Assembly (NCBI RefSeq): GCF_009931435.1
Contig: NZ_CP043414.1
DNA from: Escherichia coli
Lineage (GTDB): Bacteria > Pseudomonadota > Gammaproteobacteria > Enterobacterales > Enterobacteriaceae
DNA: 64,000 nt
Strand: one strand, 5' to 3'
A program made the position numbers and the translations under genes. The notes beneath the pieces are model-generated. The model was not told the DNA's origin. It ran no database searches and saw only the letters and a list, made by a program, of their open reading frames with translations. Shown here in pieces: positions 1,330-61,802 of this stretch (positions are counted from its first letter, which is position 1; every line of letters starts with the position of its first letter).

Positions 1330-5010
<3,681 letters not shown>

Positions 5011-9137: not shown

Positions 9138-9564
9138 AAGCTGTGTGACGAAGTAACCACTCTTAACAGCATAACCAATTTTTTACGTACGTAAACCACT
9201 AAATGATATTTGAGAGAATGCTACCGAGTATTGAAAACACCACTACAAATACATAAGCAAATCTCAACAAATAACCAAAAAATAATTTCCAGTGTTATTT
9301 TTAGCCGGTTTAAATTGAACCTTCAAATTATAGAACACTTATAAATAACAGCCGTTAATATAAATTGGCTAATAGATTTATTTTTATTCAGCCAAGAGCC
9401 ATGAATAGGATTCGATAGAAAAAAGTTCAGATAAAAATAGAGATCTACTTCACAAATCAAACGAGAAACCAAAACTTACATCTTGAAATAATCACATTGA
9501 TTAGATGAATATTTATCGCGCAGTGACATCATTTTTTAATAATAGTTCAAAAAAAGGGCTCACG

Positions 9565-10662
9565 ATGAAAAAATTAACAGTGGCAATTTCTGCTGTAGCT
9601 GCATCAGTACTGATGGCGATGTCTGCTCAGGCAGCTGAAATTTATAATAAAGACAGTAACAAGCTGGATCTGTACGGGAAAGTTAATGCTAAGCACTACT
9701 TCTCCTCTAATGATGCAGATGATGGTGATACTACTTATGCCCGTCTTGGCTTCAAAGGTGAAACCCAAATCAACGATCAACTGACTGGTTTCGGTCAGTG
9801 GGAATATGAATTCAAAGGCAACCGCGCTGAATCTCAAGGTTCCTCCAAAGATAAAACCCGTCTTGCCTTCGCTGGCCTGAAATTCGGTGACTACGGCTCC
9901 ATCGATTACGGCCGTAACTACGGTGTAGCATACGACATCGGTGCGTGGACTGACGTCCTGCCAGAATTCGGTGGTGACACTTGGACTCAAACCGACGTGT
10001 TCATGACTCAACGTGCAACTGGTGTTGCAACCTATCGTAACAACGACTTCTTTGGTCTGGTTGATGGTCTGAACTTTGCTGCTCAGTACCAAGGCAAAAA
10101 CGATCGTAGCGATTTCGATAACTACACTGAAGGTAACGGTGATGGCTTCGGTTTCTCTGCTACCTATGAATACGAAGGATTCGGTATCGGTGCAACTTAT
10201 GCGAAATCTGATCGTACCGACACTCAAGTTAATGCAGGGAAAGTTCTTCCTGAAGTATTTGCTTCCGGTAAAAATGCAGAAGTTTGGGCCGCAGGTCTGA
10301 AATATGACGCTAACAACATTTACCTGGCCACTACCTATTCTGAAACCCAGAATATGACTGTATTTGCTGATCACTTCGTTGCTAATAAAGCCCAAAACTT
10401 CGAAGCTGTTGCACAATATCAGTTCGATTTCGGTCTGCGTCCGTCCGTTGCTTACCTGCAATCTAAAGGTAAGGATCTTGGAGTATGGGGCGATCAGGAC
10501 TTAGTCAAATATGTTGATGTAGGTGCAACCTATTACTTCAACAAAAATATGTCTACTTTCGTTGATTACAAAATCAACCTGCTTGACAAAAATGACTTCA
10601 CTAAAGCACTCGGTGTAAGCACTGATGACATCGTTGCTGTAGGTCTGGTTTACCAGTTCTAA
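9565..10662 (+). CDS. nmpC: Phage-encoded OmpC/OmpF-family general porin (NmpC-like), intact
   Basis: Signal peptide [24 protein letters not shown]-terminal ...VGLVYQF; AGGG SD upstream; no IS interruption. Confidence 0.9.
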
Positions 10663-24726: not shown

Positions 24727-25005
24727 ATGTTCAGAATCATTTTTCCTAACACCTGGTACGTCGACCACCACGGCACTCCCTGCAAAATCCTGCGTTCTAC
24801 CCACAACAAAGTTCACTACATCCGAAAAGGCAGAACATGTATCGCCAGCATGTTCCGCTTTAATCATGACTTTGAACCTGTGAATAAAGCTGATGCAGAT
24901 CGGATAGCAGAAGAGATCGAAACGGCAGAACACATTAAGAAGTTACGTGACATGCGTTCAAAAAGCAGAGGTAACCATGGAATCATACAGCCTCACACTC
25001 GATGA
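24727..25005 (+). CDS. Hypothetical prophage protein
   Basis: 92 aa ORF upstream of xis. Confidence 0.4.
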   Translation: MFRIIFPNTWYVDHHGTPCKILRSTHNKVHYIRKGRTCIASMFRFNHDFEPVNKADADRIAEEIETAEHIKKLRDMRSKSRGNHGIIQPHTR

Positions 25006-25348
25006 GGCCTGTCAGTTTCTTAAGATATCCAGACCAACCGCCACCAACTGGATACGAACAGGCCGCCTACAGGCAACACGTAAAGATCCAACCAAGCCAA
25101 AATCTCCTTACCTCACAACACGGCAAGCCTGCATTGCGGCGCTTCAGTCTCCGCTGCATACTGTCCAGGTGAGCGCGGGTGATGGCATAACAGAGGAAAG
25201 AAAATGTCACTCTTCCGCAGAAATGAAATATGGTATGCCTCGTATTCGCTCCCGGGCGGGAAACGAATTAAGGAATCTCTTGGCACAAAGGACAAGCGGC
25301 AAGCTCAGGAGTTGCACGACAAGCGAAAAGCAGAACTCTGGCGAGTAG
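24977..25348 (+). CDS. xis: Putative excisionase; 3' end uncertain, ORF overlaps the int start
   Basis: ORF directly upstream of int with HTH-like N-terminus ([26 protein letters not shown]); possibly a pseudogene as in K-12 xisD. Confidence 0.45.
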
Positions 25349-26367
25349 AAAAGCTAGGGGATTTACCTGATGTCACTTTTGAAGAGGCCTGCCTAAGATG
25401 GCTTGAGGAAAAAGCTGATAAAAAATCTCTCGATTCAGATAAAAGCCGGATTGAGTTCTGGCTTGAACATTTTGAGGGTATAAGGCTTAAAGATATCTCG
25501 GAGGCAAAGATTTACTCTGCTGTAAGCAGAATGCATAACAGAAAGACGAAAGAAATATGGAAACAGAAAGTTCAGGCCGCCATCAGGAAAGGTAAAGAAC
25601 TGCCTGTTTATGAACCAAAGCCAGTATCAACTCAGACAAAGGCAAAGCATCTTGCCATGATAAAGGCCATTCTCCGTGCTGCAGAACGCGACTGGAAGTG
25701 GCTGGAAAAAGCGCCTGTCATCAAGATACCAGCGGTCAGAAACAAGCGAGTCAGATGGCTGGAAAAGGAGGAAGCAAAACGCCTTATTGATGAGTGCCCC
25801 GAACCACTGAAATCTGTCGTCAAGTTTGCGCTGGCAACTGGTCTGAGAAAGTCGAACATCATAAATCTGGAATGGCAACAAATCGACATGCAGCGACGAG
25901 TTGCCTGGGTGAATCCAGAAGAGAGCAAATCAAACCGCGCCATTGGTGTGGCGCTGAACGATACCGCCTGTAAAGTGTTGCGTGATCAAATAGGCAAGCA
26001 TCACAAATGGGTGTTTGTACATACCAAGGCGGCTAAGCGAGCAGATGGAACATCAACGCCTGCGGTCAGGAAGATGCGCATCGACAGCAAGACATCATGG
26101 CTATCAGCTTGTCGTCGTGCAGGAATTGAAGATTTCCGTTTCCATGACCTCAGACACACCTGGGCAAGCTGGCTGATTCAGTCAGGCGTCCCATTATCAG
26201 TGCTTCAGGAAATGGGCGGATGGGAGTCCATAGAAATGGTTCGTAGGTATGCTCACCTTGCGCCTAATCATTTGACAGAGCATGCGAGGAAAATAGACGA
26301 CATTTTTGGTGATAATGTCCCAAATATGTCCCACTCTGAAATTATGGAGGATATAAAGAAGGCGTAA
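25204..26367 (+). CDS. intD: Tyrosine integrase (DLP12 IntD-type)
   Basis: 387 aa; C-terminal R...HxxR...Y catalytic region; adjacent to tRNA-Arg. Confidence 0.95.
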
Positions 26368-26382
26368 CTGATTGAATTGTAA

Positions 26383-26459
26383 TGGCGCGCCCTGCAGGAT
26401 TCGAACCTGCGGCCCACGACTTAGAAGGTCGTTGCTCTATCCAACTGAGCTAAGGGCGC
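26383..26459 (-). tRNA. argU: tRNA-Arg (anticodon UCU), argU; phage attachment site at its 3' end
   Basis: 77-nt reverse complement gives acceptor stem GCGCCCU/AGGGCGC, anticodon loop CUUCUAA, T-arm GGTTCGAATCC, 3' CCA. Confidence 0.95.
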
Positions 26460-26701
26460 GTTGATACCGCAATGCGGTGTAATCGCGTGAATTATACGGT
26501 CAACCCTTGCTGAGTCAATGGCTTTTGATCTGGTTGCTGAACAAGTGAACGACCGCGTCTGATTTTCTGATTTATTTCGCTATAGCGGCAAACAAACGTA
26601 CACCGCTGCGCGTCTGAATCAAGAAAACCCGTATTTTCATGTATCAAAGTACAATTTCCCGCCCTAACGGAAAATTGTCCGATCCTATGAGACTGATAAC
26701 T

Positions 26702-39662: not shown

Positions 39663-39679
39663 CCTGGTGCTCATATTCT

Positions 39680-39980
39680 TGCCGGATGCAGCGTGAACGC
39701 CTTATCCGGCCTACTAATCCGGTACCCATTGTAGGCCTGATAAGACGCGTCAAGCATCGCATCAGGCATGGTGCGCCGATTACCGGATGCGGCGTGAACG
39801 CCTTATCCGGCCTACTAATCCGGTACCCATTGTAGGCCTGATAAGACGCGTCAAGCGTCGCATCAGGCATGGTGCGCCGATTACCGGATGCGGCGTGAAC
39901 GCCTTATCCTACTACCAATCCGGTACCCATTGTAGGCCTGATAAGACGCGTCAAGCGTCGCATCAGGCATGGTGCGCCAT
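39680..39980. repeat. BIME cluster: three tandem copies of a roughly 100-bp unit made of REP palindromes
   Basis: Repeated gccggatgcggcgtgaacgccttatccggcctac and tgtaggcctgataagacgcgtcaagcgtcgcatcaggc units between purK and ybcF. Confidence 0.9.
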
Positions 39981-48070: not shown

Positions 48071-48199
48071 GTCATACCACACGCCTGATTATTTTTAGCT
48101 ATGTTGGATTTTGCCACGGTTTATACCGTGGCTTTTTTTGTAGTCAATTCAGGTAAAAAAAAGATGCGATATAAATCGCATCCGCTTTAAAGGTAAGAG

Positions 48200-61162: not shown

Positions 61163-61254
61163 TATAAAAAAACCGACATGACAGTCGGTTTTTTTATTTT
61201 TTCCGCCCAAGACTTGGTGGTTCCGGGCAGAAATGAAACAGTCCTCATCTAGCA
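61163..61254 (-). ncRNA. Candidate antitoxin small RNA (type I TA), about 90 nt
   Basis: Minus-strand promoter TTGAAT-17bp-TATAAT (plus-strand 61283-61288 and 61260-61265); predicted 5' end is complementary to the 16-nt toxin leader motif; ends at the bidirectional terminator. Confidence 0.5.
61166..61200. terminator. Bidirectional intrinsic terminator (mnmH terminator; also positioned to terminate the candidate minus-strand sRNA)
   Basis: aaccgac / gtcggtt stem flanked by an A-run upstream and a T-run downstream. Confidence 0.7.
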
Positions 61255-61513
61255 AGTGAATTATAAGTCAGGATGCCTACATATTCAAACAGCTATGTTG
61301 GCGATACAATCCCGACGCTAGTAGTGATACTGCCTCAAGGGATTACCGCAGTGCGGAAAAGTACTTTTAAGTCCTGGTCAGGATACAGGTGGTGCTGATT
61401 CTGGTGCTCTAATTTGGAGAGAGGCAGTCCTCATCTAGCACATGAAGAAAATCATAGTTACAGGCAACGTAAGGGTAAGCTGTGATTGTCTTTCTCCCTT
61501 AAGGGAGCAACGG

Positions 61514-61597
61514 ATGAAAACTTTTCTCGATAAAGTTCTCATCGTTCTTAAGGCGCTAATCGCGCTGCTGGAACTGATCCGTCAGTTTATTGAATAA
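61514..61597 (+). CDS. Candidate type I toxin: 27-aa amphipathic/hydrophobic peptide MKTFLDKVLIVLKALIALLELIRQFIE
   Basis: ATG with AAGGGAG SD 7 nt upstream; intrinsic terminator follows (61614-61643); resembles DinQ-type toxins. Confidence 0.55.
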   Translation: MKTFLDKVLIVLKALIALLELIRQFIE

Positions 61598-61700
61598 CTG
61601 AGGAAACGTAGCTAAGGCCGAAGGTTTACCACCTTCGGCCTTTAAAAAAACCGACATGACAGTTGGTTTCAGATTTATTGCCAAAATGCACACTGTTCAT

Positions 61701-61786
61701 GCCGGATGCGGCGTGAACGCCTTATCCGGCCTACGGTTAAGTGCAGTTTTGTAGGCCTGATAAGACGCGCCAGCGTCGCATCAGGC
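61701..61786. repeat. REP element pair between the small-peptide module and ybbP
   Basis: gccggatgcggcgtgaacgccttatccggcctac ... gtaggcctgataagacgcgccagcgtcgcatcaggc. Confidence 0.85.
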
Positions 61787-61802
61787 AATCTAACGCCTGT
61801 CA

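Follow-up and report, generated by a model that had tools for sequence, protein, structure and literature searches.

The Xis protein of phage lambda, a recombination directionality factor of the winged-helix class, is 72 amino acids long, and its gene lies upstream of int and overlaps it by about 20 nt. The C-terminal tail of lambda Xis is implicated in Int cooperativity in PMC2951348, which cites Numrych 1992 for the requirement of the Xis C-terminus in Xis-Int cooperativity. For phages P22 and ES18, the requirement for xis in Int-mediated excision was shown genetically (PMC8575938): delta-xis and delta-int prophages of P22 do not excise and instead replicate in situ, and an int-xis plasmid complements the double mutant. 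Purified P22 Xis binds att sites and bends DNA, and at high concentration it may block re-integration (Mattis 2008, as summarised in PMC7498355). The xis gene of the P22 reference genome is 351 nt long (NP_059585.1, 116 aa) and lies directly upstream of the gene for a 387-aa tyrosine integrase, which it overlaps by 124 nt; we found no published statement of this overlap in the searchable literature. In E. coli K-12, the argU locus is occupied by the cryptic prophage DLP12 with the gene order argU-intD-xisD (intD, b0537; xisD, b4633), in which xisD is a genuine pseudogene that has lost ~132 nt from its 5' end and with them the start codon and the region encoding the helix-turn-helix.

We analyzed the corresponding locus in a 64,000-nt stretch of an E. 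coli genome (NZ_CP043414.1), referred to here as the window. An earlier note on this DNA had described an ORF at 24977-25348 that overlaps the integrase gene by about 145 bp in another frame, and these coordinates proved to be exact. From the raw sequence and the list of open reading frames, xis occupies 24977..25348 on the plus strand and encodes 123 aa followed by a TAG stop, while int, named intD in RefSeq, occupies 25204..26367 on the same strand and encodes a tyrosine integrase of the IntD/P22 Int type with 387 aa and an ATG start (Pfam Phage_integrase, E 5e-47). The two genes share 145 nt (25204..25348) in different frames, such that position 1 of an int codon is position 3 of a xis codon and int position 3 is xis position 2; the relative frame is the same as in P22. 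The argU locus and int are also the same as in DLP12, and K-12 xisD matches nucleotides 133-372 of the window xis at 99.6% identity, but the window gene is complete.

Both start sites are supported by comparison with homologs. The mechanical ORF list begins xis at a GTG at 24947; the start of the homologs aligns with the ATG at 24977, and a Shine-Dalgarno-like AGAGGT, read from the sequence, is located 4-5 nt before this ATG (24967..24972, plus strand). A second Shine-Dalgarno-like element, AGAGGA (25192..25197, plus strand), lies within xis codons 6-7 nt before the int ATG and is kept as GAGGA or GGAG in the nucleotide alignment with P22, SfI, POCJ13, HK446 and HK639. In an AlphaFold2 (AF2) model of Xis fused to part of Int, Int residues 2-25 form a three-stranded sheet followed by a helix, which fits an N-domain of the arm-binding type, and this predicted fold supports 25204 as the true int start.

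The reading of the ORF as an excisionase gene was borne out by profile and homology searches. Xis residues 1-116 match positions 2-117 of the 117-position profile PHROG 2907 ('excisionase') with an E value of 5.9e-46, thus covering the whole profile. The HTH-like N-terminus that had been noted is real, with Pfam HTH_17 matching residues 6-36 above its gathering score (E 1.2e-8; 35.5 bits against a cutoff of 27), and TIGR01764 ('excise') scores 27.7 bits, just under its cutoff of 28.8. P22 Xis has the same HTH_17 winged helix, and its identity to the window protein over all 116 residues is 76% by tblastn and 78% by alignment. A tblastn search with the window Xis returned 162 phage records, 161 of them at a query coverage of at least 80%, the E value being 9e-54 for P22 xis and 4e-78 for the identical copies in phages; by these values, the ORF is far beyond a chance ORF. 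Matches annotated as xis or excisionase include those in P22, ST64T, SfI, SfV, SfX, HK446, ES18, Cronobacter ENT47670 and APSE. The Xis proteins of SfI, SfV, SfX, HK446, ENT47670 and Hamiltonella APSE, annotated as excisionases or DNA-binding proteins, are 115-126 aa long, overlap int by 124 or 145 nt and are 40-86% identical to the window Xis, and their phages use other att sites (thrW and others).

Lambda Xis, in contrast, is much shorter and has no detectable sequence similarity to the window protein. The Pfam family of lambda Xis was absent from the Pfam matches at E values up to 1, and a PDB sequence search with the window Xis found no meaningful relative. Judged from its sequence, the window Xis is of the same functional class as lambda Xis but belongs to a separate sequence family. 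The gene lies directly upstream of int, co-oriented with it and overlapping it, beside the att site, and 233 of 235 related loci are arranged in this way. We estimate a probability of about 0.88 that the ORF represents an intact P22-type excisionase gene in an argU-integrated lambdoid prophage and that its overlap with int is conserved. The P22-type layout of xis and int is in itself already known biology.

The integration target is the tRNA-Arg(UCU) gene argU (26383..26459, minus strand; ARAGORN and Rfam tRNA), which lies 16 nt past the int stop with its 3' end facing it, and fimZ comes after argU. P22, in contrast, integrates at thrW, and the phage backbone in the window is lambda-like (PhiR34_1-like) rather than P22-like. 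Positions 1-25000 match Escherichia phage PhiR34_1 at 97.7% identity over 92% of the length, with terminase, portal, replication and recombination genes, and the window therefore holds the int-proximal ~26 kb of a lambda-like prophage. A search for a second att copy found no repeat of the argU-proximal sequence within the 64-kb window; the far att site and the P arm to which Xis would bind lie beyond it, and excision of the prophage depends also on that end. The genes upstream of xis on the same strand are a DUF4222 ORF (24727..25005, plus strand; Pfam DUF4222 E 1.9e-19; PHROG 285, function unknown), which overlaps the start of xis by 29 nt, a TraR/DksA gene, exo and bet-like genes. Phage SfI has the identical order and overlap of the DUF4222 ORF and xis.

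Two further features of this region were observed. A sigma-70 promoter-like site on the minus strand at 26491-26518 (TTGACT-16-TATAAT, near-consensus at 11 of 12 positions) immediately precedes argU and presumably serves as the promoter of the tRNA gene. Within the prophage, a 385-aa ORF at 9505-10662 (plus strand) corresponds to an OmpD/porin gene in related PhiR phages, which, going by the annotation of these neighbours only, suggests an NmpC-like lysogenic-conversion porin as in DLP12.

In order to place the 145-nt overlap in the context of the family, we assembled a set of 250 loci, drawn from phage records and from three IMG/VR scans; 235 of the loci have a complete int. The first IMG/VR scan gave only copies that were 98-100% identical, and the diversity of the set comes from the scans that used HK639 and HK446 Xis as queries. 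Of the 235 loci, 151 have an overlap of 124 nt and 82 one of 145 nt, leaving two aberrant cases. In one of these (L055), the int ORF is shortened to 278 aa. In the other (L080, IMGVR_UViG_2778261172_000009), a G-to-T change at xis nucleotide 244 creates E82* within the region shared with int, and this copy is truly decayed. Among the named phages, the P22-type 124-nt overlap recurs in SfI, ENT47670 and HK446, and the 145-nt overlap in APSE-7 and Shigella phage POCJ13. In public-database protein clusters, 115/116-aa and 122/123-aa homologs are each spread over many genera, and the genera with homologs include Salmonella, Citrobacter, Cronobacter, Serratia, Pantoea, Rahnella, Yersinia, Xenorhabdus, Edwardsiella, Erwinia and Mangrovibacter.

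These data bear directly on the length of the ORF, which the earlier note had considered much greater than that of a typical Xis and for which it had suggested either a real long overlap or a decayed xis. The protein is long only when set against lambda Xis, as 116 aa is the norm for the P22 type and the PHROG 2907 profile itself has 117 positions. Once aligned, the related xis genes show the same lengths and overlaps, which by the reasoning of that note marks the gene as functional and not unusual. Of the two explanations offered, the real long overlap holds, with 124 or 145 nt in 233 of 235 loci, whereas neither the decayed gene nor the implied unusualness does.

The difference between the two overlap classes can be traced to a single Int codon. 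Relative to P22, the window Xis has seven extra C-terminal residues and the overlap is 145 rather than 124 nt, with Arg in place of Leu at Int position 42. We derived the underlying stop rule, which is strict, from the nucleotide alignment and from Int residues 31-50 tabulated against the Xis C-termini. Where Int reads D-[KRSQ]-L-K, the Leu42 codon (CTG or CTA) together with the A of Lys43 forms TGA or TAA in the xis frame, and Xis ends in ...TTS or ...TIV; in the alignment, P22, HK639 and HK446 have CTG+A and hence TGA, and SfI has CTA+A and hence TAA. In the window, POCJ13 and APSE-7, Int reads D-K-R-K with Arg42 encoded by CGA and there is no stop at codon 42. As this codon removes the embedded stop, xis runs on for seven codons (21 nt) to the next stop, a TAG formed by GTA of Int Val48 and the G of the Glu49 codon. 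The resulting C-terminal extension, EKQNSGE followed by TAG, is found at 25325..25348 (plus strand; nucleotide alignment) and only in the 145-nt class.

Given the Int protein and random synonymous codons, the chance of an open xis frame is 0.398 over Int codons 1-48 and 0.401 over codons 1-41, and because these values are the same, the extension is essentially dictated by Int. It could nevertheless be supposed that EKQNSGE is an adaptive feature of argU-type modules that, for example, tunes Xis stability or a contact between Xis and Int, since it always accompanies Int 'DKRKAELWR' in 40 unique loci and in APSE-7 and ends at a fixed position. We consider this quite improbable, as both the presence and the end point of the extension are set entirely by Int codons 42 and 48-49, and its residues vary radically among homologs (Q/L/P and S/Y/C) through third-position changes that are silent in int. 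Moreover, synonymous diversity of int at codons 42-48 is 0.46 and thus not depressed, albeit measured over six columns only. The seven-residue tail is most likely a neutral by-product of the Int sequence.

The alternative that xis is decayed, i.e., a pseudogene that has lost its original stop so that the long overlap is a read-through artefact, draws on the seven additional codons relative to P22, on the truncated xisD of DLP12 and on the annotation, as the NCBI annotation pipeline (PGAP) marks a pseudogene stub at the position of xis. However, the window Xis is colinear with the Xis proteins of P22, SfI, POCJ13 and APSE, and the 116 residues equivalent to P22 Xis are wholly intact, free of frameshifts and internal stops when compared with P22 Xis. 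Distant lineages (APSE of Hamiltonella, Salmonella, Citrobacter, Serratia and Rahnella) carry the 123-aa form as well, whereas the truly decayed copy with E82* accounts for one of 235 loci. The phages ev243 and PhiR30_1 (the latter with propagation host E. coli C), whose genomes have been deposited, encode the identical 123-aa protein, the xis products of PhiR49_1 and PhiR29_1 are 99.2% identical to it, and 2129 of 5426 complete E. coli genomes contain at least 80% of the xis gene, 1396 of the 5426 having a copy at 99% identity or more. On these grounds we rejected the decayed-gene reading, to which we would assign almost no weight.

The pseudogene stub itself appears to be an annotation artefact. 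RefSeq/PGAP represents the 123-aa allele only as a 66-bp pseudogene at 24977-25042 ('helix-turn-helix domain-containing protein; incomplete; missing C-terminus'), with equivalent stubs at 3578-3643 in a second locus (L001) and at 601-666 in a third (L251), and the phage records PhiR30_1 and POCJ13 leave xis unannotated. The same pipeline calls the 116-aa allele of E. coli intact (L252, NZ_CP025920.1); in that case it passes over the conserved ATG with its Shine-Dalgarno element and begins int at a TTG 45 nt further downstream (828 vs 873), a choice that drops 15 residues from the Int arm-binding domain. Neither choice seems to have a biological basis; a penalty on long overlaps would account for both. 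Since a very common xis allele appears only as a pseudogene stub, automated assessments of prophage integrity that rely on PGAP annotations will wrongly score such prophages as having no excisionase.

The intactness of the reading frame still leaves the question of whether both frames of the overlap are used for coding. The segment common to the whole family, 25204..25327 on the plus strand, makes up nucleotides 1-124 of the overlap in the 82 loci of the longer class, and covers xis codons 77-116 plus the P22-type stop position and int codons 1-41; the same 124 nt of int are dual-coded in P22 and in the window. We measured diversity at int synonymous sites, which are second codon positions of xis. 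For 155 distinct int sequences, pairwise diversity at synonymous sites is 0.25 over codons 2-41 and 0.38 over codons 49-387 (Mann-Whitney U test, p=1e-4). The difference persists in 43 representatives below 97% nucleotide identity, with values of 0.275 over codons 2-41 and 0.437 elsewhere (p=6.8e-6), and the window of 40 codons that begins at int codon 2 has the lowest synonymous diversity of all 346 such windows. Diversity rises from 0.278 at int codons 21-40 to 0.473 at codons 41-60, a step that falls exactly at the end of the P22-type xis. An effect of translation initiation is a less likely cause, as its signal should die away over the initial 10-15 int codons and not last to codon 41 and then stop.

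Low synonymous diversity was also seen at the 3' end of int, at approximately 26284-26343 (codons 361-380), with 0.21-0.23 against about 0.44; this may reflect how near the att core and argU are, or C-termini so divergent that only a few columns can be compared.

Two other lines of evidence were considered and rejected. The maintenance of an open frame does not by itself demonstrate coding, as simulation gives a chance of 0.16-0.50 per lineage that the xis frame over Int codons 1-41 is open, and the conservation of Xis C-terminal residues (C77, G86, L98, L102 and T106) is not independent evidence, as it is confounded by constraints on Int. For example, Cys77 (TGT) is near-invariant because it is forced by ATG-TCN of Int.

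Both points would fit a situation in which only the N-terminal ~76 residues of Xis matter and the overlapped tail is functionless, kept because the Int sequence seldom makes a stop there, as would the low AF2 confidence over most of Xis 62-123 and the radical variation of the last seven residues. We regard such a passive tail as unlikely, as it does not account for int synonymous sites that are less variable over codons 2-41, with a signal that ends at the P22-type stop instead of fading over 10-15 codons. Each of the 43 diverged representatives has an open xis frame and a closed third frame. The predicted helix at Xis residues 88-103, which is present in both AF2 runs, and the reported need for the C-terminus of lambda Xis in Int cooperativity (Numrych 1992, as cited in PMC2951348) also speak against it. 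From the pattern of synonymous variation we deduce, at a moderate to good level of confidence, that selection acts in its own right on the C-terminal part of Xis as far as residue ~116.

In the AF2 model of Xis, which was built on an alignment of 46 sequences, residues 1-60 (24977..25156, plus strand) form an N-terminal winged-helix DNA-binding domain with the element order beta-alpha-alpha-beta-beta-alpha and pLDDT values of 80-93. Foldseek matches this domain to Xis of mycobacteriophage Pukovnik (4j2n), BldC, P2 Cox (4lhf) and RacA, with target-normalised TM scores of 0.54-0.81 and rmsd values of 2.1-3.1 Å over 55-59 columns; the E values are only 0.01-0.04, as expected for a domain of 55 residues. 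Confidence is low at residues 62-86, a linker, and at residues 108-123, a disordered basic tail, and the helix at residues 88-103 has a pLDDT of about 70. An AF2 model of Xis fused through a Gly-Ser linker to Int residues 1-75, built to see if the C-terminal helix of Xis docks on the arm-binding domain of Int, gave a pTM of 0.29 and yielded no information on contacts; any such signal would also be confounded, as the two segments share nucleotides and therefore co-vary trivially.

It is tempting to speculate that the C-terminal ~40 residues of Xis are a case of conserved overprinting, maintained by their own purifying selection across phages of the Enterobacterales, and that helix 88-103 may contact the very arm-binding domain of Int with which it shares its DNA; we rate this combined proposal at somewhat less than even odds. 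The contact between the C-terminal helix and Int is suggested by analogy with lambda. If the proposal is correct, the overlap would physically link the coding sequences of two interacting surfaces. We found no explicit evolutionary analysis of the P22-type xis/int overlap in the searchable literature, and the gene pair, which is well sampled, provides a clean natural case of two genes that overlap at length in different frames, with a signature at synonymous sites that can be measured.

By analogy with P22 Xis, the winged helix formed by the ~60 N-terminal residues would bind repeated sites in the P arm of att and bend the DNA, and Xis would cooperate with Int in the excisive intasome, steering Int towards excision and disfavouring re-integration. 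The C-terminal ~47 residues, consisting of the flexible linker, the predicted helix 88-103 and the basic tail, are read from the same stretch of DNA as the arm-binding domain at the N-terminus of Int. As xis and int lie on the strand of exo, bet and the early-left genes, they are presumably co-transcribed after induction, and translation of Int would initiate at its own Shine-Dalgarno element inside xis. The dual-coding layout is ancestral to the P22-type family and conserved within it, and the 145-nt overlap represents the 124 nt of the family plus 21 nt that arise from Int Arg42 (CGA) where P22 has Leu42 (CTG). The prophage in the window may itself be competent for excision.

Outside the prophage, the window contains several repeat and RNA elements. 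A 101-nt tandem repeat is present in three copies, with a distant copy at 65% identity (39679-39980 and 61699-61799), and contains two matches to Rfam naRNA4, a nucleoid-associated RNA of the REP325 type (39734-39913, minus strand). Matches above the Rfam gathering score were also obtained for the sRNA STnc480 (48077-48143, minus strand) and for AgrB, an antisense RNA of a dinQ-type locus (61164-61252, minus strand), the latter sitting among short direct repeats at 61165-61669.
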